Shown: positions 4,426-10,866 of the stretch, piece after piece
How positions within the stretch are numbered: position 1 is the first letter of the stretch
How the letters are laid out: every line of letters starts with the position of its first letter
DNA from: Candidatus Thorarchaeota archaeon
GTDB taxonomy: Archaea; Asgardarchaeota; Thorarchaeia; Thorarchaeales; Thorarchaeaceae
DNA: 13,017 nt
Assembly: GCA_029858305.1 (NCBI GenBank)
Contig: JAOUFI010000060.1
Span: 1 to 13,017, forward strand
Direction: 5' to 3'
The notes under the pieces: model-generated
The model's input: the letters and a program-made list of their open reading frames with translations, nothing else
What the model was told of the DNA's origin: nothing
Database searches by the model: none
Translations under genes and position numbers: made by a program

Positions 4426-5271
4426 TTATCGAATATCCAAGGGTTCTATTACGCCACTACTTCCTATACGCACTATTTTGGGGCGTACGCGACCCATATA
4501 GGTTGCAGTGAAGACACTTACAAGCCGTTTCTGGAAGAAAGTGCAATACCCTTCGGGAATGACTTCATGAGCCCGAAACATAACTTGAGCATTAATATTC
4601 TCCATGAATGTATCAAATGCTATTTGCCCATAATGTCGAGCTCGAGAGCTTCGCTCGTTAGGATAGAATTTAAAATTCCCTTCTCGAGGATCATTCCATA
4701 CTAATTGGAATATGACATCATCTGGGAAATTTGGATTTCTCCTATTTCGTGCTTGGATTTCTTCTATCGATGCCACACCCTCAGGAACTCCTCCATGACA
4801 ACCAAATACAAATCCTTCACGATAGGCGGCAATAGGAAGAACCTCAAAAACGCTTGAGTAGTACTTGAATACATCTACAGAAAACTCTCTAAGAACAGCA
4901 TGATAGAATCCATAGCGAGCAGCAATTTCATTAGACTCGTGATTACCTCTAAGCAACAGGACTCTATCCGGATAGGCAAGATTTAGTGCCATAACTAAGT
5001 TAATGGTTTCAACCTGTTCAGGACCGCGGTCTGCATAGTCTCCAAGAAAGATGAAGTAGTGATTATTGTATTTCTCTATATATCGTTGAACTGACAGCAC
5101 ACTCTGCAATTCTCCATGCAAGTCTCCGACGAAGATCAAGTTCTGAGAAGGAATTGTCACAACGTTTGGGCTAGCTCTATAGTGATCAATAGTTAAGCCG
5201 GCAAGGTGCCAAATTTCTTCTTGTGTGAAATCTTGTTTACCATTGAAGATCGACTGAACAAGCGCATCCAT
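4426..5271 (-). CDS. PPP-family serine/threonine protein phosphatase (PP1/PP2A/PP5-like)
   Basis: Complete PPP motif set: GDLHG, GDYADRG, LRGNHE, CHGG, LVWNDP, RAHE and SVFTA. Confidence 0.92.
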   Translation of the reverse strand: MDALVQSIFNGKQDFTQEEIWHLAGLTIDHYRASPNVVTIPSQNLIFVGDLHGELQSVLSVQRYIEKYNNHYFIFLGDYADRGPEQVETINLVMALNLAYPDRVLLLRGNHESNEIAARYGFYHAVLREFSVDVFKYYSSVFEVLPIAAYREGFVFGCHGGVPEGVASIEEIQARNRRNPNFPDDVIFQLVWNDPREGNFKFYPNERSSRARHYGQIAFDTFMENINAQVMFRAHEVIPEGYCTFFQKRLVSVFTATYMGRVRPKIVRIGSSGVIEPLDIR

Positions 5272-5282
5272 TCACTATACAC

Positions 5283-5789
5283 CTATTTCCAATTAAGTGC
5301 ATCAAAGACCATTTGTACTGCTTCCCTAGGAGTTTCGGCAGAGTGCACGACATCATTTCGTCGTCCATCGATCTGTGTTCCAGCGAGCTTTTGAGCCCAT
5401 CCTCCAGATTTTGTAAGTGCCACGATTGGTCTATCTGAGAACCATGCGATTGCAATCTCACTTAGAGTTCCTGCAGAGCCATCAAGAGCTATAACTGCGT
5501 CTCCTGCTTTGGCTACAAGAAAATTGCGTGCATAGCCAAGTCCTGTTGGAATCACGATATCAACGAATTCATTAGCGTGCTCTTTCATCTCAGTAGGAAG
5601 GATTCCGATTGTGAGACCATTAAATTTCTTAGCTCCCCGACAAGCTGCTTCCATCACTCCTCCAAGCCCGCCGCATGCAAGAGTAACTCCTCGTTTGGCT
5701 ATTTCTGCTCCAGTTTGTTCAGCGAGCTCAAGTACATCATGATTTGAATCAGAACCCCCTATGATAGAAATAATCCTGTAGGTCATCAT
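5283..5789 (-). CDS. TIGR00725-family protein (LOG/DprA-like Rossmann fold)
   Basis: Motifs ISIIGG, CGGLGGVMEAACRGAK, GLTIGILP, TGLGYARN and GSAGTLSEIA. AGGAG lies upstream. Confidence 0.88.
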   Translation of the reverse strand: MMTYRIISIIGGSDSNHDVLELAEQTGAEIAKRGVTLACGGLGGVMEAACRGAKKFNGLTIGILPTEMKEHANEFVDIVIPTGLGYARNFLVAKAGDAVIALDGSAGTLSEIAIAWFSDRPIVALTKSGGWAQKLAGTQIDGRRNDVVHSAETPREAVQMVFDALNWK

Positions 5790-5798
5790 TCTTCTCCT

Positions 5799-6914
5799 CT
5801 AGTCGCTAATTGATCTCTCTACTGTAACTAGTCTGCTTTTCAAAATTTGATATGCCCCACGCGGAAGTTTACCATCTTTCACCCTTTTTTCTGCCACTTC
5901 CAGAAGTGACCTTACAGGTATAGATTTTCGAGAATAAGCAGCAAGTAAGTCTGCCGGAATTCCTTTTCTCTCAAGTTCAAGACTTAACTCGAATTTGGCG
6001 CATATGCTAGCTCGCAGTATTTGCGATTCTACATGCTGTGGAAGTCTCCGTTCAGCAATAGCCATGACTTTGGCTGCTATCAATAGTGCTTTCTGACTGA
6101 TACCTTGAGAAGACCATCCCGAGTCTACTGCGATGATGCAGACATTTGCTTGACGTTTGCATTGATGAATGCAAAAATTACAAATATCTGGCTCCATACT
6201 GACTGCTCCCGTCTTGAGAGAAATACTCGCCTTGCCTTCTTTTATCTGAATTCTACAAGTATCTCCTGCTAGCTGTAAACCTTGGTCTAGTAAGATTGTC
6301 CGAATATCACTAATTTCTTCATCAGTACATTCAATCTCAGAAAGTCTATAAATTGGATGTACATATGTCGGACAGATTGATTCATCTAGTATGATGAAAG
6401 TTGAAGATTGTATCTTTCTCTTATTCTTGCTCGTAATCTTATGAGCAAGAAGACTGATCACGTCGCTAGTTTCACTTGCTTGCAAGATTTTGTAGCCTTC
6501 ACGATAATGTGCACCAAAATCTTCGCACGCCTGTACTGCTTCATCATATGAACCTACAACACCTATAACAACATTGGAGCTGAATCTGAGTGATAGATTA
6601 GTAATGAGTTCTGGGACCTCTCTGACTTCATTGGGTCGGACAATCACAAAGATAGCTTGATGGCCTTTAGTAAAACTCTGACTCAGTCCAGATACTCTTT
6701 CGTTCTGAGGTATTGCCCAGAGCTGTAGTGTAACACTACAATCCTCACCTCCATCAAACCGAGCAATTCCAAGGCTAATACCAAGGGTGTTGAATAGCTG
6801 TGTTGATATATTTCTTCCAGATACTTGTATCAAAAAGCCAGTTTGTAAGGCTAGGTCTCTACCAATCACTAAGACCTTGAAAATTAATCTCGTTCTAGGT
6901 ATCTGGATTGACAT
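5799..6914 (-). CDS. Degenerate Ras/Rab-like GTPase-fold protein (probable pseudo-GTPase) with Cys-rich region and C-terminal SHOCT-like helix pair
   Basis: The N-terminus follows the Rab pattern: FKVLVIG, then NTLGISL, then VTLQLWAIPQNERVSGLSQSFTKGHQAIFVIV. The G1 GK[ST] and G3 DxxG motifs are lost. Also CNFCIHQC-x6-C and a terminal LLEVAEKRVKDGKLPRGAYQILKSRL. Confidence 0.7.
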   Translation of the reverse strand: MSIQIPRTRLIFKVLVIGRDLALQTGFLIQVSGRNISTQLFNTLGISLGIARFDGGEDCSVTLQLWAIPQNERVSGLSQSFTKGHQAIFVIVRPNEVREVPELITNLSLRFSSNVVIGVVGSYDEAVQACEDFGAHYREGYKILQASETSDVISLLAHKITSKNKRKIQSSTFIILDESICPTYVHPIYRLSEIECTDEEISDIRTILLDQGLQLAGDTCRIQIKEGKASISLKTGAVSMEPDICNFCIHQCKRQANVCIIAVDSGWSSQGISQKALLIAAKVMAIAERRLPQHVESQILRASICAKFELSLELERKGIPADLLAAYSRKSIPVRSLLEVAEKRVKDGKLPRGAYQILKSRLVTVERSISD

Positions 6915-7005
6915 TCTCTCTTGCTAGATATACAATAATCAACTAATACCTATTGGTCACAGAATAAAATTCATCTTCAGTGTTAATTGAGTTTGATTGG
7001 TCAAT

Positions 7006-7371
7006 ATGGTCAAAGTATACAGAGCCTCCGATGCCGAAGAAATAGCAAGAGCTGGATATGTTGCGAAGTATGTTGCTGACATTAGATTTCGAAAGAAGAT
7101 AGATAATGGCGGATTCATTATGGTGAGTATTCCAGCTGGATCAAAAACATCTCCGCACATTCACAAGAAGTTGGAAGAGGTGTTCGTAGCATTGAGTTCT
7201 CTTGAAATGTACATTGATGCAACTCATATTCAACTTGAGGTTGGAGACATTGTCATTGCGGAACCTGGCGAAAGCCACTCATTCTCAGCGTATCCATCAT
7301 CTCAAGGAAAGATATTAGCAATTAAATTACCAAACTTGAAAGAGGATAAAATCCAACTAGATTCTTCATGA
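7006..7371 (+). CDS. Cupin domain protein (cupin_2)
   Basis: Cupin motifs IPAGSKTSPHIHKKLEEVF and GDIVIAEPGESHSF. ATG at 7006 preferred over the TTG at 6997. Confidence 0.85.
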   Translation: MVKVYRASDAEEIARAGYVAKYVADIRFRKKIDNGGFIMVSIPAGSKTSPHIHKKLEEVFVALSSLEMYIDATHIQLEVGDIVIAEPGESHSFSAYPSSQGKILAIKLPNLKEDKIQLDSS

Positions 7372-7376
7372 GCAAA

Positions 7377-7811
7377 CTAGAAATCTTCGTAATCGGAATC
7401 ATCCTCATCATCAGGCTCTTCGTCAAAGATGATGTCAACAGGACTTCCATGTTGAGTCATAAGGTGAGTCTTTGGAATCGCCCTTCTGATGACTTTGTCA
7501 AACTCTTTCCATTCTCTATATCTTCTTCTTCTGCCTATTATTCCTGCAATTGATACGACTGTGAAGGCGACTATACCTGTGACATAGAGTTCTATTCTAG
7601 ATTCAAACATCCCAGAACCTGCACTGAGCGCGATAACAAGGATACCCCCCAAGATTAAGGTGTTAAGAGAACAATCACAAGTCATATTGAGTTGACGTGG
7701 ACCAATTTGAAAGTCCTCTGGATCAGCTCCTGGTGCGAGGTTAAGATAGTAATTGAATACTGTCAATGTCATTATTACAATGATGAGAATTGTTAAGATG
7801 AAAATGTCCAT
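7377..7811 (-). CDS. Small membrane protein (about 3 TM) with acidic C-terminal tail, hypothetical
   Basis: Three hydrophobic segments, a CDC motif before TM2, basic RRRR after TM3 and a tail DEEPDDEDDSDYEDF. Starts 19 nt after the PIN gene stop, with a purine-rich spacer. Confidence 0.72.
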   Translation of the reverse strand: MDIFILTILIIVIMTLTVFNYYLNLAPGADPEDFQIGPRQLNMTCDCSLNTLILGGILVIALSAGSGMFESRIELYVTGIVAFTVVSIAGIIGRRRRYREWKEFDKVIRRAIPKTHLMTQHGSPVDIIFDEEPDDEDDSDYEDF

Positions 7812-7830
7812 TCTTTTTCCTTCTCTTATT

Positions 7831-9648
7831 TTATGCTTCAGTTTCTGGGACCGTGACCTTCAGGCACGAGAATCCATATTCACCTTCATAAGATATTTCT
7901 GAAAGTTCACTTGGAATAACCGTTAAGATAATAGAATAGCTTTTGACTACATCAGTTTTTGTATTTGCTATTTCAAACTCTCCTTTTGTTAGAGCTACCT
8001 TATGACCTGTCTTTAAAGTACTAAGAATAGGATGGTGTTTGGTCATTATGGCAATCCTAGCCTGTAACATCTCATTTCGTACAACAAGAACCTCCTCTCC
8101 TTCGATATTCTCAAGAGTAAGTACATCCATCCAACCCTTGAGTTCGTCAGGTATTGATTTGAAAGGTGCAGGTCCTCCTGTTGACATATTCTCGATACGT
8201 GGAAACTCTCCTTGAACCTCATTAAGAATTGGCGTGACCAAGTTTGTGTTCCATCCTTTCTTGACAAAGGCTTTGAGAGCGTGCTCCGAGATCTTCTCTA
8301 AAGCAGGTTTGAACCGATCATGAGATGATGATGATACTTTGTAGAGCATTCTAAATGAGCTCAATGCGCCCTCCTCTCTGTTATACGCCACACCAATCTT
8401 GTAGGCAGTAACTGCTAATTGCCAAGCATTATCATGATCATCGAAGAGCAGACTGTATTTAGCAATATCATTGAGCATTGCTATTGTCACATCTGGGAAC
8501 TGGAGCTTTGTCTTGGTAAGACTGAAGCCCCCCATCACTTCAGATCTAAGAACCTGCATTGTGATGTAGAATCCCTCAGTCGTTTCCATCATGGTATCAA
8601 GTGATAAACGATTAATCATTGAATCATAAAGACTGTAAAAGTAGTCTATCTCATTATAATCCTCTCTTATGAGAGAGAGAAGAATTCTGACAAAGAAGAC
8701 AGATGCTTTGAGTTCATTGTTCTGCACCTCTGCGAACATGAGAAGTCTGAATGCTTCCTCACTCATTACTAAGGCATCTTCCATCCCCTCACGTGTACCT
8801 CGGTATAGGTGGCAAATCATCTCAAGATAATATAGAAATAGTGTTAGGTCCGCAGCATGTCGAACAAGTTTGCCATGGGTTTCTGTATCCTCAGTCAATG
8901 TTGAAACAATCAGAAGCCGTTCAATCTCATTCTGGACAGTTTCTATCTCAAGTGCTAGAGTATCATACTTTCCATCACGGAAATCATCAAACATATTTGG
9001 TATATCTGCCTTGATGTCTTCGAGAAAATCTAAGACGAACAGTGGTTGTCCCTTTGCCAATTGTCTATCCAGACCCTCTGCAGGTCTTTTGACGGCTCTT
9101 AACACACGAAGAGCATGGTCCTCTATGATTCGTATCCTAGTCACTGGATCATATGACTCCTGCCTTGCTATACTGTAGCGGACTTCTTCAGAATAGATTC
9201 TATCTCTAATAGGAGCCAGAGACTTCTTCATATCTTCATCATCTGCTAACTCCATCAACTCAAGCACAAATGCAGAGCCAACAATTCCTTCGACATCCAC
9301 CTTTAGCTCTTGAATCGTGCTTAGTAATTTCATATCACTTGTTACTATCTTGGATTTTTTAGAACGCATAGCCGCCAGAATAAGACTCATATCGTTAGCT
9401 TGAGGAAGCGAGCTCTCAGGGCGTTTAATGCTCTCCGTAAAGGCCTTGATGTCTTTGGATAGCGTTTCATCAATTTGGATGATTGTTTCAACCTCTCGTC
9501 GAAGATACCAACGAAGTTCTTGGAATACTTGTCTTGTAATCCATAGCTCTACATCGATCTTATCCGCTGCCGCTTTTATTATTGCAACATCTTTGGGGCG
9601 GTCTGAAAATCCACTGATAAAGAAATTGGCATCAAGGTACACTCGCAT
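7831..9648 (-). CDS. PIN-domain ribonuclease fused to a long alpha-helical (TPR-like) region and a C-terminal beta-rich domain
   Basis: PIN acidic residues are present: YLDAN (D6), VFQEL (E44), ANDMSL (D86) and VTSD (D105). Residues of about 200-480 look like amphipathic helices. The last approx. 110 aa are beta-rich. Confidence 0.82.
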   Translation of the reverse strand: MRVYLDANFFISGFSDRPKDVAIIKAAADKIDVELWITRQVFQELRWYLRREVETIIQIDETLSKDIKAFTESIKRPESSLPQANDMSLILAAMRSKKSKIVTSDMKLLSTIQELKVDVEGIVGSAFVLELMELADDEDMKKSLAPIRDRIYSEEVRYSIARQESYDPVTRIRIIEDHALRVLRAVKRPAEGLDRQLAKGQPLFVLDFLEDIKADIPNMFDDFRDGKYDTLALEIETVQNEIERLLIVSTLTEDTETHGKLVRHAADLTLFLYYLEMICHLYRGTREGMEDALVMSEEAFRLLMFAEVQNNELKASVFFVRILLSLIREDYNEIDYFYSLYDSMINRLSLDTMMETTEGFYITMQVLRSEVMGGFSLTKTKLQFPDVTIAMLNDIAKYSLLFDDHDNAWQLAVTAYKIGVAYNREEGALSSFRMLYKVSSSSHDRFKPALEKISEHALKAFVKKGWNTNLVTPILNEVQGEFPRIENMSTGGPAPFKSIPDELKGWMDVLTLENIEGEEVLVVRNEMLQARIAIMTKHHPILSTLKTGHKVALTKGEFEIANTKTDVVKSYSIILTVIPSELSEISYEGEYGFSCLKVTVPETEA

Positions 9649-9905
9649 TAAATCATGTCTCCATCTGATAGTAACTGCATGACCAAGGTATTAGAACTAT
9701 AGTCCTGCTCCTCAAGGGTTTGCTTCTCTGAACAGGTTCTCATAAAGATGTTATGCTCTGAACCTCGGCATAAAGGGAAAACGCGTTTCGAGGGAAAAAG
9801 GTTCCGATTTGACAATCCTCACTAACATTTTCCTTAGATATTTCCATGCTCCCCTATACGTCCTTTGTGTTAGTGTATTGAATTCATAATGCTCATCAAG
9901 CAAGG

Positions 9906-9913
9906 CTTAAAAG
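9906..9913 (+). promoter_or_regulatory. Putative archaeal TATA box (CTTAAAAG) for the candidate ncRNA
   Basis: A purine-rich BRE-like CAAGCAAGG lies immediately upstream. The box sits about 30 nt before the first helix of the structured region. Confidence 0.4.
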
Positions 9914-9939
9914 TAATAGTATATCATATAACATATCAG

Positions 9940-10205
9940 CAATGGTTCTTGATTCTATGAATCGGCCAAGAACCAGCCAAAACAATGATGGGAAACTGTC
10001 GTTGACCGCAAGGGTTAACTGCAATTGTCGCCCATTCATTAGTAAAGAAAGGGCATAGCATATTCAATGTGGGCCGTCGTTACTTAGGCGTGCGGTGACG
10101 GCTAGCAACGGCTTCAATATAGGTTCGTTGGAACGCGGCGTACAAAATCATTAGGTGGTGGCGCGGCAATACGGCGCGTTGCCCTCATGACGCTATGCCC
10201 ACCTT
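9940..10205 (+). ncRNA. Candidate structured non-coding RNA of unknown family (three domains)
   Basis: Hand-folded helices: 9943-9951/9967-9975; 9984-9992/10031-10040 with inner 9997-10007/10013-10023; 10051-10059/10192-10200 enclosing hairpins 10072-10103, 10106-10130 and 10157-10183. Region 10051-10200 is 56% GC (84/150). Numerous G-U pairs specific to the + strand. No ORF of 60 aa or more. Confidence 0.65.
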
Positions 10206-10220
10206 ATTCTATCTTCATTT
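10204..10220 (+). terminator. Putative T-rich archaeal terminator after the structured RNA
   Basis: TTATTCTATCTTCATTTT directly follows the closing helix. Confidence 0.35.
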
Positions 10221-10305
10221 TATGATGATTGCAAGTTTCCTAACCTGATATAATGCGCTAACAAGCGAGCTAATTAAGGCAAAATCAACAGGACTCAGGA
10301 TTGCT

Positions 10306-10866
10306 ATGGTTATTCATCAAAGAAGCGCCAACATCATTGTGGTTGTCACATTACTGATCTTAGTTTCGAATATTGCCATTCTAACAAATAGAGTTGAGTC
10401 ACAGACAACAGATGGATTTGGTGAAAAAGAATTCAATCGCATAGCTGACGTGAGTCCATCGATATACGACTGGGGAATTACGGGTAGAGCTAATGAGAGT
10501 GCGGCATTTACCGTCTGGGCAAATGTGACAGATGATGACTTGGACCTTGCCAATGTGAGCGTTCACGTCGATGGACCCAATACCACAATTCATGAGCTTA
10601 TGCCCTTCAACGGAACGTTCTATGTCACCAACCTAGATGCGCTTCATAATTTTGGCTTGTATGATATATATGTAACAGCAACTGATTTGGCAAACAACAC
10701 CAGGGAAGGTCGACATATTTCAGTAGAAATAATACCAGACACTACAGAACCTCCGGATCCATCCATAACCATGCCAATTGTCGTCATCTCCAGTGTAATT
10801 ACCGGATTCATTGTCTGTGTAGTTGCATATCTCTATGCAAAACGAAAACTTACCAATACAGCCTGA
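10306..10866 (+). CDS. Secreted/surface protein with Ig-like beta domain and C-terminal membrane anchor
   Basis: N-terminal hydrophobic signal segment, a beta-rich core (YDIYVTATDLANN), a Pro/Thr linker (PDTTEPPDPS), and a C-terminal TM plus KRK. Six N-x-S/T sequons (NES, NVT, NVS, NTT, NGT, NNT). Confidence 0.8.
   Translation: MVIHQRSANIIVVVTLLILVSNIAILTNRVESQTTDGFGEKEFNRIADVSPSIYDWGITGRANESAAFTVWANVTDDDLDLANVSVHVDGPNTTIHELMPFNGTFYVTNLDALHNFGLYDIYVTATDLANNTREGRHISVEIIPDTTEPPDPSITMPIVVISSVITGFIVCVVAYLYAKRKLTNTA

Follow-up and report, generated by a model that had tools for sequence, protein, structure and literature searches.

The locus and its conserved core

The region studied here spans positions 9940 to 10205 on the plus strand of a 13,017-nucleotide (nt) stretch of Candidatus Thorarchaeota DNA (contig JAOUFI010000060.1), which we refer to as the window; the next gene is c1. 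An initial annotation, drawn from the letters of the window, described the region as an RNA of three domains, and all of the strings that it quoted, including the helix strands of domains 1, 2, and 3, are present where it placed them. The locally raised GC content that it reported is also evident (0.525 in 10000 to 10199 versus ~0.36 to 0.44 in the surroundings), and the region is flanked, as described, by a TATA-like box upstream and a T-rich tract downstream (Table 1). The plus strand folds better than chance, with a minimum free energy of -97.9 kcal/mol compared to -79.8 ± 5.3 for shuffled sequences (z -3.40; 0/200 shuffles as good), while the fold of the minus strand has a z of -1.83 (7/200 shuffles as good). 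The annotation had further pointed to G-U pairs specific to the plus strand, and these hold across relatives, in which U-G pairs dominate at several positions (pair 48/58, for example, is U-G in 31 of 35 sequences). Both the U-G pairs and the difference in folding between strands count for the plus strand, which is where the core RNA lies.

To compare related loci, we used several alignments. A1/A2 comprise 18/20 loci of the window's genus, with the incomplete L016 and L020 left out. A3 comprises 35 loci, leaving out the partial L035 and L048 and the duplicates L023 to L029; A4 comprises 51 of roughly 88 loci, thinned of near-duplicates; and A5 comprises 28 sequences spanning genera, from which near-duplicates and L046, with its 34-nt insertion, were omitted. 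In the 35-sequence alignment, compensatory changes occur in 34 of the 44 pairs, and pairing holds in 96.9% of 1475 cells versus 31.5 to 44.0% when the partners are slid. None of 500 shuffles reaches any of the measures. Application of RNAalifold to structure-blind MAFFT alignments yields the same helices, and alignments of this kind give compensatory changes in 22/44 pairs among 18 same-genus sequences and in 31/43 pairs among the 28 sequences spanning genera. By mutual information, 21 of the 24 top column pairs are pairs of the model and the remaining 3 extend its helices; these helix extensions are all that the measure returned when tertiary pairs were sought. The RNA proposed in the initial annotation is thus borne out by covariation in relatives, and its conserved secondary structure, backed by compensatory substitutions, is that of a structured noncoding RNA (ncRNA) gene. 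Only domain 3, at 10051 to 10203, is firmly RNA.

The core fold consists of P1 (9 bp), an internal loop, and P2 (9 bp), followed by a four-way junction with the hairpins P3, P4, and P5. The nine pairs of P1 are formed in 98.7% of cells, with compensatory changes in six of them (35 sequences), and the helix is also predicted by structure-blind alignments. P2 is 95.7% paired in the same sequences and shows compensatory changes in 9/9 pairs; its U-U mismatch in the window is pair 151/273 of the genus alignment. In the structure-blind alignment, the base of P4 is lengthened by an invariant C-G pair and an A-U/G-C pair (18/9), and mutual information adds a covarying pair to P5 (115/195).

About 40 positions of the core are invariant, mostly outside helices. 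Unchanging or nearly so are the loops of P3 (GGCGUGCG), P4 (CAAAAU, which is CAATAT in the window), and P5 (AGGUGGUGGCGCGGC), the junction, and the 3' tail ACC. The core of the P3 loop, GGCGTGC(G), is invariant across the family, with GGCGTGC found in 35/35 and 28/28 sequences; CCCACC, at the 3' end, is invariant in the same two sets. The P5 loop sequence AGGTGGTGGCGCGGC is nearly invariant, and GGUGGUGGCGCGG, also from this loop, is exact in 32 of 35 sequences that were collected without use of that motif. Covariation is unable to test the tertiary contacts proposed below, because these involve only invariant bases. A pairing between the P3 and P4 loops (UUUG:CAAA) and a CUUGC:GCAAG pairing were considered and dropped, as they showed no covariation in 35 rows checked by eye.

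Comparison also revises how domain 3 was first drawn, as a closing stem around three hairpins. The 9-bp closing stem stands as P1 and CAACG/CGTTG stands as P4. The hairpin GGCCGTCGTT/GGTGACGGCT mostly survives as P3, but its outer 3 bp compete with the conserved long-range helix P2, which was absent from the initial drawing. The remaining hairpin, GGTGGCGCG/CGCGTTGCC, does not hold: there is no variation in its 5' strand, and its 3' strand covaries with AACGCGG.GTA (10132 to 10142), forming P5 instead. In locus L031, whose rows we read by eye, this hairpin would carry two C-A mismatches, while P5 is fully paired.

These data also bear on whether there is an RNA at all. That the helices are chance palindromes or an element acting at the level of DNA is extremely improbable given the number of compensatory pairs, the strand-specific G-U pairs, and the retention of a single copy across the family between diverging flanks.

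Table 1. Features in and around the RNA gene (positions in the window; promoter and terminator elements are putative)
Feature	Position	Sequence	Strand	Remarks
Far BRE/TATA-like element	9901-9913	CAAGGCTTAAAAG	+	Start site would fall at ~9935-9940; ~145 nt before P1
Possible 5' extension	9940-10050		+	Covers domains 1 and 2 and a linker; either untranscribed promoter DNA or part of a long precursor or isoform
Domain 1 hairpin	9943-9951 with 9968-9976	TGGTTCTTG with CAAGAACCA	+	As drawn in the initial annotation
Domain 2 hairpin	9984-9992 with 10031-10040	AATGATGGG with CCCATTCATT; inner GTTGACC/GGTTAAC	+	As drawn in the initial annotation
Near BRE/TATA-like element	10004-10019	GACCGCAAGGGTTAAC	+	First T 36 nt before P1; apex of domain 2 hairpin
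P1, 5' strand (domain 3 closing stem)	10051-10059	GGGCATAGC	+	Pairs with 10192-10200; first three pairs, G-C, invariant
P2, 5' strand	10068-10074	TGTGGGC	+	Pairs with 10181-10187; one U-U mismatch in the window
P3 hairpin	10075-10100; stem 10075-10081 with 10094-10100	Loop ACTTAGGCGTGC	+	6/7 pairs compensatory (35 sequences)
Junction and P4	10102-10131; stem 10106-10114 with 10121-10130	Junction CTAG (consensus CUUG)	+	5/5 pairs compensatory
P5	10132-10180; stem 10132-10142 with 10170-10180	27-nt loop CAAAATCATTAGGTGGTGGCGCGGCAA	+	8/10 pairs compensatory
P2, 3' strand	10181-10187	GCCCTCA	+	Helix 2 of the covariation model
P1, 3' strand (domain 3 closing stem)	10192-10200	GCTATGCCC	+	Helix 1 of the covariation model
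ACC tail	10201-10203	ACC	+	Single-stranded, invariant, directly after P1; next base U or C, never A (35 rows)
T/C-rich tract	10204-10232	TTATTCTATCTTCATTTTATGATGATT	+	Likely archaeal oligo-T terminator, putative
TATA-like near-palindrome	10267-10279	GAGCTAATTAAGG	+	~35 nt upstream of the next gene's ATG (10306); outside the RNA; in many genera between the RNA and c1

Distribution and relation to known RNAs

Of 39 genomes from the family to which the window belongs, 33 have exactly one full-length match to the RNA; matches occur in 15 of the 16 genera sampled. The window's own genome likewise has a single match. A second draw of genomes gave a match in 24/26 members of the family. Other families of the phylum gave none in 124 genomes, nor in 35 genomes searched at E≤1 with laxer filters. 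The one genome of the sister family also has no match, and upstream of its two c0 homologues the best score is 6.2 bits with filters off. The RNA is so far specific to the Asgard family Thorarchaeaceae. Within this family, 6 of the 39 genomes are without a match; one of them, G144, is 97% complete, and the RNA is therefore either dispensable in some members or diverged beyond detection.

A pattern search of 185,579 species genomes identified 58 matches, of which 53 were confirmed at 76 to 195 bits. By record name, the confirmed matches are 38 Thorarchaeota, 4 Promethearchaeota, 10 "(uncultured) archaeon," and 1 Hermodarchaeota. A similar scan of metagenomes gave 39 contigs, all of at least 1 kb and none with ends resembling those of a transcript. 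The patterns used in both searches require the invariant motifs, and their matches are for this reason unusable as a measure of motif conservation.

We next compared the RNA to known families by a covariance-model search of Rfam 15 (4227 models). At the gathering score there are no matches in the whole window. At E≤10, the interval 9800 to 10350 has two chance-level snoRNA matches only, both outside the core (9860 to 9936, E 4.6; 10282 to 10325 on the minus strand, E 9.2), and the loci of 18 relatives (55,960 nt) have three, none at the RNA. Full-text literature searches likewise returned no description of such an RNA.

Individual classes were considered in turn. ARAGORN, which covers tRNA and transfer-messenger RNA (tmRNA), finds no genes in the window, and Rfam gives no tRNA or tmRNA match; a tRNA with large introns was set aside after inspection by eye, with no T-loop or arm signatures seen. 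For C/D-box or H/ACA guide RNAs, there is no Rfam match on the core in the window and the 18 relatives, and neither the size nor the junction fold agrees. The genome's RNase P RNA (RF00373) is at C44:45535-45873 (157.1 bits), and its signal recognition particle (SRP) RNA (RF01857) is at C50:9890-10201, where the full model (1 to 317) is matched at 95 bits against a gathering score of 96.5. Because these genuine genes lie elsewhere in the genome, the core RNA is not a divergent copy of either, in agreement with the initial annotation, which saw no hallmarks of tRNA, SRP RNA, or RNase P RNA. It resembles both in being a single-copy, GC-enriched, covarying structural RNA preceded by the same kind of T-rich upstream TATA element, but it matches neither model at E≤10, differs in motifs and helix layout, and occurs in one family rather than universally. 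A resemblance of the P3 loop to UUGACGUGCGG of SRP helix 5 led nowhere. A small open reading frame (ORF) starting at an AUG after AGGUGG in some relatives was dropped because the window has AUA at that site.

When antisense targets were sought across the genome, the 17-nt P5-loop motif had no complement at up to 2 mismatches, and shorter motifs gave chance-level matches only. One exact 10-mer match, at C5:18935, was judged to be due to chance.

A likeness in kind links the core RNA to the orphan bacterial ncRNAs OLE, GOLLD, ROOL, raiA, and HEARO, which are Rfam families known from comparative genomics only. Like them, it came to light through comparison of genomes and combines strong covariation and many invariant unpaired bases with a narrow range and no obvious function, and such RNAs often have a conserved neighborhood. 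Unlike them, it has no Rfam 15 match, is archaeal (Asgard), and has tRNA-like ends; it is also much smaller than OLE, GOLLD, and ROOL.

The ends of the gene and their likeness to tRNA genes

Two promoter-like elements precede P1. The near one closely matches the promoters of the genome's tRNA genes; in that of tRNA-Ala (GCGTAAGGGTTAAAAC), for example, the first T lies 35 nt upstream of the mature 5' end. Among 54 loci, the motif ACC-N4-G-(TATA-like) occurs 39 to 55 nt before P1 in 28 and 87 to 89 nt before it in 6. In this genome, the far element recurs in front of RNase P RNA (CATCTTTTTATGAG) and has a similar counterpart ahead of SRP RNA, and most genera carry CTTTTTAT(G/A) 105 to 175 nt before P1. 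A scan for sigma-70 promoters and intrinsic terminators, whose models are not applicable to archaea, gave nothing of note.

In the initial annotation, the near element was the apex of domain 2, described as a GCAA tetraloop with GGTTAAC. This apex is indeed the conserved part of domain 2, and it looks like a tRNA-type BRE/TATA promoter of this genome, at a tRNA-like spacing from P1. The rest of the 5' region fares unevenly. Domain 1 is not conserved, with 61.6% of its cells paired in the genus. The stems of domain 2 are 85 to 89% paired in the genus, which is modest support, but they show few compensatory changes, and their covariation does not exceed that of slid controls (7 covarying pairs in the genus 5' stems versus 5 to 11). 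Given the tRNA-type promoter-like element at the apex of domain 2 and the lack of conservation of domain 1, the 5' end would lie at either ~9935 to 9940 or ~10042; it is ambiguous because there are two promoter-like elements. Of the originally proposed ~270-nt multidomain RNA, comparison thus confirms the ~160 nt of domain 3, while domains 1 and 2 are perhaps a leader or promoter DNA.

It is nonetheless possible, if the less probable outcome, that the full initial model is correct and that the mature RNA has three domains and ~270 nt, starting near 9940 from the far promoter, with ACC-GNRA-G-UAUAAC serving as a functional RNA loop atop domain 2 and not as a promoter. The identity of the far element with the RNase P RNA promoter and its conservation in most genera would fit this model, and since there is no T-tract between the far element and P1, any transcript from there includes the core. 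The window's copy of the motif sits within 15 enclosing pairs, versus 0.9 in controls, with strong enclosure also in L076, L063, and L050, and among the well-paired genus stems, pair 73/109 is G-C in 8 sequences and A-U in 6. Across 53 loci, the 110 nt before P1 have a mean z of -1.71 versus -0.45 and -0.37 for controls. Yet the structure potential is almost equal on the opposite strand (-1.48), 9 of 34 loci have no enclosing stem, and the mean number of enclosing pairs is 9.0 versus 7.1 in controls. The motif also varies by A/T swaps in the manner of TATA boxes (TTAAC, TATAAC, TTATAA, TTTAA, and TTATAT) and equals the local tRNA promoters in both sequence and spacing, and domain 1 and the covariation counts weigh in the same direction.

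At the other end, a T/C-rich run follows CCCACC in the 54 loci examined and looks like the tract downstream of the genome's tRNA genes, which end in ...N-CCA followed by a T-rich tract (22/24 ARAGORN calls). The likeness extends further. Both kinds of gene have a BRE/TATA element of the same type ~31 to 40 nt upstream of the G that opens the first helix, a 5' GGGC whose partner GCCC is followed by an unpaired A-CC, a T-rich trailer, and a four-way junction topology. The differences are equally clear: the core RNA is ~153 to 160 nt compared to 75 to 90 nt for a tRNA, has helices of 9+9 bp before the junction, is without D-, anticodon-, or T-arm signatures, and escapes both ARAGORN and Rfam. While the tRNA genes here encode the terminal A of CCA, the core RNA gene never does. 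We therefore treat the tRNA-like ends as a resemblance only, and descent of the RNA gene from a tRNA gene would be a guess.

One could instead take the resemblance literally. The RNA would then be a tRNA-derived mimic in translation or tRNA metabolism, in which P1 is acceptor-like and A-CC is completed to CCA and perhaps charged, or in which GGU repeats in the P5 loop bind the CCA ends of tRNAs, as do the RNase P L15 loop, T-box RNAs, and the ribosomal P-loop. The GGGC.../...GCCC-ACC arrangement mirrors the local tRNA genes (those for tRNA-Met, Ile, and Pro end in GCCCACCA) and shares their promoter spacing and trailer; ACC and GGUGGUGG are invariant, and UGGU, read directly from the sequence, is complementary to ACCA. 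Nevertheless, the missing arms, the final A that is never encoded, and the failure of ARAGORN and of the Rfam tRNA clan (E≤10) to match make such a mimic improbable.

A broader form of the idea is similarly doubtful and would be speculative: a lineage-specific Asgard RNA with the layout of a tRNA gene, a tRNA-type promoter, an acceptor-like stem, and an ACC end, in which a 140-nt four-way-junction module stands in for the tRNA body and its invariant loop, GG-U-GG-U-GG-CGC-GG, folds into a G-quadruplex or a GGU:ACC pseudoknot, the whole being a tRNA-end-sensing or tRNA-mimicking ribonucleoprotein (RNP) or ribozyme. Were the tRNA-end reading true, the RNA might read or occupy CCA ends, or be processed and charged like a tRNA, with a possible functional coupling to the neighboring MacB-type envelope transporter.

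Gene neighborhood and possible roles

Among 47 loci with at least 700 nt of downstream sequence, the RNA lies upstream of, and on the same strand as, the MacB-type ABC transporter cluster genes c1/c0 in 35, and in 21 of these loci one of them is the first ORF. In another 12 of the 47, no copy of the usual neighbor genes follows on the same strand, and in four the next ORF is on the opposite strand (L059, L067, L082, and L091).

This raises the question as to whether the RNA is a cis-regulatory leader of the downstream envelope/ABC-transporter cluster (Ig-like membrane protein, FtsX/MacB-type permease, and ABC ATPase), riboswitch-like or a protein-binding attenuator, whose four-way junction binds a ligand and whose ACC tail and T-tract decide between termination and read-through. 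The recurrence of c1/c0 in many genera while the upstream genes vary is consistent with such a role, as is the T-tract that abuts the closing helix. G144 and G136, which are without the RNA, are also without clear c1 and c0 orthologues. Aptamers, moreover, typically have many invariant unpaired bases and a multihelix junction, as seen here. Several observations nevertheless make a leader unlikely. The conserved TATA-like palindrome between the RNA and c1 looks like a separate promoter element of c1, and the RNA's own promoter elements are of the stable-RNA/tRNA type. Several loci have other genes inserted between the RNA and c1/c0, apart from those in which opposite-strand genes follow. The RNA and its neighbors can also come apart, since G140 has the RNA and c1 with no c0, genus g25 has the RNA and c0 with no c1, and the two c0 homologues of the sister family have no RNA upstream. 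Finally, recurrence upstream of several related genes, by which riboswitches are recognized, is not seen: each genome has one copy at one locus, and no other gene of related function has it upstream.

Known parallels are the four-way-junction metal riboswitches yybP-ykoY (Mn2+) and czcD (NiCo), which are bacterial and lie upstream of exporters. They share with this archaeal RNA a four-helix junction, conserved loops, and a position upstream of a transporter operon on the same strand. The core RNA differs in having no Rfam match, a terminator-like tail of its own, a single locus, and a further promoter-like element before the transporter genes.

Catalysis can be considered on similar grounds. 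A complex junction fold with invariant unpaired positions is the pattern used to nominate ribozyme candidates, and the core RNA displays both. A catalytic RNA of a new class is nonetheless very unlikely, as no known ribozyme family in Rfam matches and there is no hint of a substrate or cleavage site.

Taken together, the locus holds a single-copy gene for a compactly folded ncRNA of ~160 bases (perhaps 270 with the 5' extension) that matches no described family. Our preferred reading, to which we assign a probability of about 0.6, is that the plus-strand interval 10051 to 10203 forms the core of a gene, present in one copy and transcribed on its own, whose product is a stable ncRNA with a compact fold, so far specific to Thorarchaeaceae. 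The suggestion in the initial annotation of a stand-alone ncRNA, possibly of an undescribed archaeal class, gains support from the single-copy conservation in the family, the covariation, the stable-RNA/tRNA-type promoter elements, the T-rich tail, the apparently separate promoter element of the next gene, the presence of genuine RNase P and SRP RNAs elsewhere in the genome, and the absence of an Rfam match or a published description. The 12 loci in which the usual neighbors do not follow on the same strand also fit a transcription unit of its own.

We infer the transcription, ends, and abundance of this RNA from features of the sequence; a search for sequencing runs that contain it listed none of RNA. 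Transcription would start from one or two BRE/TATA promoters of the tRNA/stable-RNA type, the near one 36 nt and the far one ~145 nt before P1, and would end in the T-rich tract right after ACC. Since the ends of the gene are like those of tRNA genes (GGGC.../...GCCC-A-CC, promoter spacing, and trailer), tRNA-processing enzymes probably make the mature ends, with RNase P cleaving at G10051 and with 3' trimming and perhaps addition of an A. The mature RNA would be ~153 to 160 nt, preceded by 110 nt of leader or precursor. A tertiary core is most likely built from the unpaired nucleotides that never vary, which are mostly G-rich; it could arise, for example, from pairing between GGU in the P5 loop and ACC in the 3' tail, or take the form of a two-layer G-quadruplex. 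Such a core would offer a surface for binding, with the RNA working in trans within an RNA-protein particle and not as an antisense or coding RNA.

The RNA is new in the sense of a family without a detectable relative, not as a proven new principle. Structured RNA families with such covariation and so many invariant unpaired bases are rare in archaea, and for Asgard archaea, which among known prokaryotes are the most closely related to eukaryotes, we found none described in full-text literature searches or in Rfam 15. The covariance model is usable at once to annotate Thorarchaeota genomes and mark the family. The ~160-nt core is small enough for structure determination and offers testable features: its tRNA-like ends, G-rich invariant loop, possible 3'-tail pseudoknot, and fixed gene neighborhood. 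Should the RNA turn out to be an RNP subunit, ribozyme, or regulator, a lineage-specific function for RNA would become known in archaea whose RNA biology has hardly been explored.

Covarying structure of the core RNA

The initial annotation had proposed a plus-strand RNA of three domains at 9940-10205, and every sequence string that it quoted occurs in the window. The minimum free energy of this region is -97.9 kcal/mol, compared with -79.8 ± 5.3 for 200 dinucleotide-preserving shuffles (z -3.40, with none of the 200 as good); on the minus strand, z is -1.83 and 7 of 200 shuffles are equally good. The GC content is locally raised, as had been noted, to 0.525 in 10000-10199 versus approximately 0.36 to 0.44 in the surrounding region.

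Covariation among relatives is strong for the third domain, here called the core (10051-10203). In a model-guided alignment of 35 sequences, standard pairs make up 96.9% of 1475 cells, compared with 80.6% in shuffles and 31.5 to 44.0% with slid partners. Compensatory changes occur in 34 of 44 pairs (272 cells), and none of 500 shuffles reached the alignment on any measure. Because this alignment leans towards its own model, structure-blind MAFFT alignments were added as a check. RNAalifold recovered the same helices from these, with 22 of 44 pairs compensatory for 18 genus sequences and 31 of 43 for 28 sequences across genera. Among the 24 top mutual-information pairs, 21 are model pairs, and the remaining three each extend P5, P3, or P4. 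U-G pairs at several positions across relatives fix the strand as plus, as the initial annotation had argued from G-U pairing. We consider it very highly probable that the core is a genuine structured RNA.

The proposed third domain is therefore real as a covarying RNA, but one of its inner hairpins is not. The hairpin GGTGGCGCG/CGCGTTGCC is favored by the window alone and is ruled out by covariation, which pairs its 3' strand with 10132-10138. In two relatives the otherwise invariant P5 loop is altered at one place: in locus L046 (genome G041), 34 nt resembling a hairpin are inserted between GGUGG and UGGCGCGGC, and locus L033 is without UGG.

Coordinates of the RNA, its promoter-like elements, and neighboring genes in the window
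Feature	Position	Strand	Remark
Metallophosphoesterase	4426-5271	-	
SLOG/LDcluster4 protein	5283-5789	-	
144-aa ORF and 371-aa ORF	within 4426-9648	-	
124-aa ORF, cluster c4	6997-7371	+	among the minus-strand genes
605-aa protein	7831-9648	-	weak PIN-domain matches, below Pfam cut-offs
Far element	9901-9913	+	CAAGGCTTAAAAG in window; CTTTTTAT(G/A) in relatives
Near element	10004-10019	+	GACCGCAAGGGTTAAC in window; pattern RACC-N4-G-(TATA-like)
P1	10051-10059 with 10192-10200	+	
Asymmetric internal loop	between P1 and P2	+	
P2	10068-10074 with 10181-10187	+	opens into four-way junction with three hairpins
P3 hairpin	10075-10081 with 10094-10100	+	loop core GGCGUGC invariant
P4 hairpin	10106-10114 with 10121-10130	+	loop consensus CAAAAU
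P5 hairpin	10132-10142 with 10170-10180	+	27-nt loop including nearly invariant AGGUGGUGGCGCGGC
Unpaired tail ACC	10201-10203	+	invariant in 35/35 and 28/28 sequences
Near-palindrome GAGCTAATTAAGG	10267-10279		~35 nt before ATG of c1 (Ig-like membrane protein); conserved there in many loci
186-aa protein	10306-10866	+	weak Ig-like (Big_13) match
FtsX-type permease	10869 onwards	+	

Distribution in Thorarchaeaceae and comparison with known RNAs

Searched at the DNA level, 19 of 24 congeneric genomes besides the window's own returned a single match (70 to 83% identity). The matches span only window positions ~10000-10225, with the flanking sequence diverged, and none of 16 genomes outside the genus had one. 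When the core of the 18 genus sequences was made into a covariance model (R1), 24 of 26 genomes in the family Thorarchaeaceae, covering 13 of 14 genera, each gave one full-length match, and 124 genomes from 26 other families of the phylum gave none. With a second, family-wide model (R2, 51 rows), 33 of 39 family genomes each had one match. The sister family, represented by a single genome, had none, and a run with relaxed filters at E ≤ 1 over 35 genomes from 17 further families was also negative. The six negative family genomes are 74 to 97% complete (G144, 97%). Within the window's own genome, a family HMM gave a single match.

A pattern scan for three invariant motifs over 185,579 species, one genome per species, gave 58 matches, of which 53 were confirmed as full-length at 76 to 195 bits; the other 5 lie on GC-rich bacterial contigs. 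The confirmed records are titled Candidatus Thorarchaeota (38), Promethearchaeota (4), "(uncultured) archaeon" (10), and Hermodarchaeota (1). On these searches, the RNA is so far specific to the Thorarchaeaceae. The record titled Candidatus Hermodarchaeota (locus L101, 5014-5173, 123 bits, full length) has flanks near-identical to those of L060, titled Thorarchaeota, and the same neighboring genes; its title is probably a labeling or binning issue and not a second lineage. Genome G014 has a partial P5-loop repeat (AAAACATTAGGAGGTGGCGCGGC plus the same T/C-rich tail) ~50 nt past the RNA end at its locus (L094) and, on another contig, a second partial model match (C20:62970-63021, model positions 90-140, 51 bits). 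These partial copies may be duplication remnants.

At gathering score, nothing in the whole window matched Rfam 15; at E ≤ 10, there were just two chance-level snoRNA matches in 9800-10350, both off the core, and three matches in the loci of 18 relatives (55,960 nt), none on the RNA. ARAGORN found neither a tRNA nor a tmRNA. The RNase P RNA (C44:45535-45873, 157 bits) and SRP RNA (C50:9890-10201, equivalent to L022 1501-1812 on the minus strand; 95 bits, full Rfam archaeal SRP model) of the window's genome are located elsewhere; the core is thus a third, different structured RNA. At 95 bits, this SRP RNA falls just below the gathering score of 96.5 and would be missed by default Rfam annotation. 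A full-text literature search turned up no account of an RNA of this kind in Asgard archaea or Thorarchaeota at the level of titles and abstract openings. Together with the covariation and the absence of Rfam matches, this supports the proposal of a stand-alone noncoding RNA of an undescribed class.

Promoter-like elements, termini, and extent of the RNA

Two conserved promoter-like elements lie upstream of the core. The far element, 105 to 175 nt upstream of P1, also precedes the genome's RNase P RNA (CATCTTTTTATGAG), and a similar one precedes its SRP RNA. A transcript from the far element would start near 9935-9940, as first proposed, and would give a mature form of about 270 nt. Against that start, the near element, which is the apex of the proposed second domain, is the same in sequence and spacing as the promoters that precede tRNA genes in this genome: its first T lies 36 nt before P1, and in the tRNA-Ala promoter GCGTAAGGGTTAAAAC the first T is 35 nt from the mature 5' end. 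Among 54 loci scanned, the near element starts 39 to 55 nt before P1 in 28 and 87 to 89 nt in 6, and it varies by A/T swaps, like a TATA box.

Evidence for the 5' extension as RNA is mixed; a 270-nt mature RNA is rather unlikely, and the first two proposed domains are doubtful. Within the genus, domain 1 is just 61.6% paired, and the 5'-region stems, though 85 to 89% paired, have few compensatory changes, no more than slid controls. In some genera a strong stem encloses the near motif (15 pairs in the window versus 0.9 in controls), and 9 of 34 loci have no such stem (mean, 9.0 versus 7.1 pairs in controls). The 110 nt before P1 have a mean z of -1.71, versus -0.45 and -0.37 in flanking controls (mononucleotide shuffles), and the opposite strand is nearly as good (-1.48). 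The core is certain as an RNA; the 5' 110 nt could be either a precursor or leader or promoter DNA, with tandem promoters possible. Among sequencing runs recorded as RNA, none contains this stretch.

The RNA starts with GGGC at a tRNA-typical distance from the near promoter and ends in GCCC-ACC, followed by T or C (never A) and a T/C-rich run. In the window's genome, 22 of 24 tRNA genes (ARAGORN) encode CCA with a T-rich run after it; tRNA-Met, -Ile, and -Pro end in GCCCACCA, after which the trailer is rich in T in the Ile and Pro genes but less so in the Met gene. The likeness is confined to gene layout and termini, as D-, anticodon-, and T-arms are absent from the RNA, and it suggests that RNase P and the 3' tRNA enzymes would make the mature ends. 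The genome's tRNA genes (e.g., on contigs C113, C119, and C205), which include one for selenocysteine on C133, share a BRE/TATA consensus ~31 to 40 nt upstream of the mature 5' end.

The invariant P5 loop contains two copies of GGU, the complement of ACC, with which it could pair. Its sequence can also be read as GG-U-GG-U-GG-CGC-GG, which might form a two-layer G-quadruplex. Both ideas are beyond the reach of covariation because all of the bases concerned are invariant.

Gene neighborhood and overall reading

ORFs of 54 loci were clustered with a custom script, and clusters were named with Pfam. Upstream genes are variable, with the PIN protein only in the window's genus and FG-GAP, TPR, or other proteins elsewhere. 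The minus-strand gene run upstream of the RNA (4426-9648) is conserved within the genus. Downstream on the same strand, the usual genes are c1 (membrane-anchored Ig-like, ~190 aa), c0 (a ~930-aa permease with two FtsX domains), and c9 (an ABC ATPase). A zinc-ribbon protein (~215 to 260 aa) and a LURP-one-related-like protein (~200 aa) form a gene pair adjoining the RNA in seven loci, downstream in L088, L061, L052, and L106 and upstream on the opposite strand in L073, L085, and L067; it seems to be part of the same conserved neighborhood.

The presence of c1 or c0 downstream in 35 of the 47 loci whose downstream sequence extends for 700 nt or more (as first ORF in 21) raises the question of a cis-regulatory leader of that operon, which we consider unlikely. 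Other genes intervene in several loci, and opposite-strand genes follow the RNA in four (L059, L067, L082, and L091). Clear c1 orthologs are restricted to the family. The RNA, c1, and c0 are all missing from G144 and G136; c0 is lacking in G140, which has the RNA and c1, c1 is lacking in genus g25, which has the RNA and c0, and the sister family has two c0 homologs with no RNA upstream of either. As the three are partly separable, their linkage is conserved but not obligatory, and it fits a gene in a stable neighborhood better than a leader. The near-palindrome before c1 is likely the c1 operon's own promoter or operator.

In our preferred reading, at a probability of roughly 0.6 for the statement as a whole, this Thorarchaeaceae-specific RNA is stable, folds compactly, acts in trans, resembles a tRNA in its gene layout and ends, and is probably part of an RNP. 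It forms a new RNA family within a lineage that has been much studied; the comparative support is very clean, and the features of the RNA can be tested.
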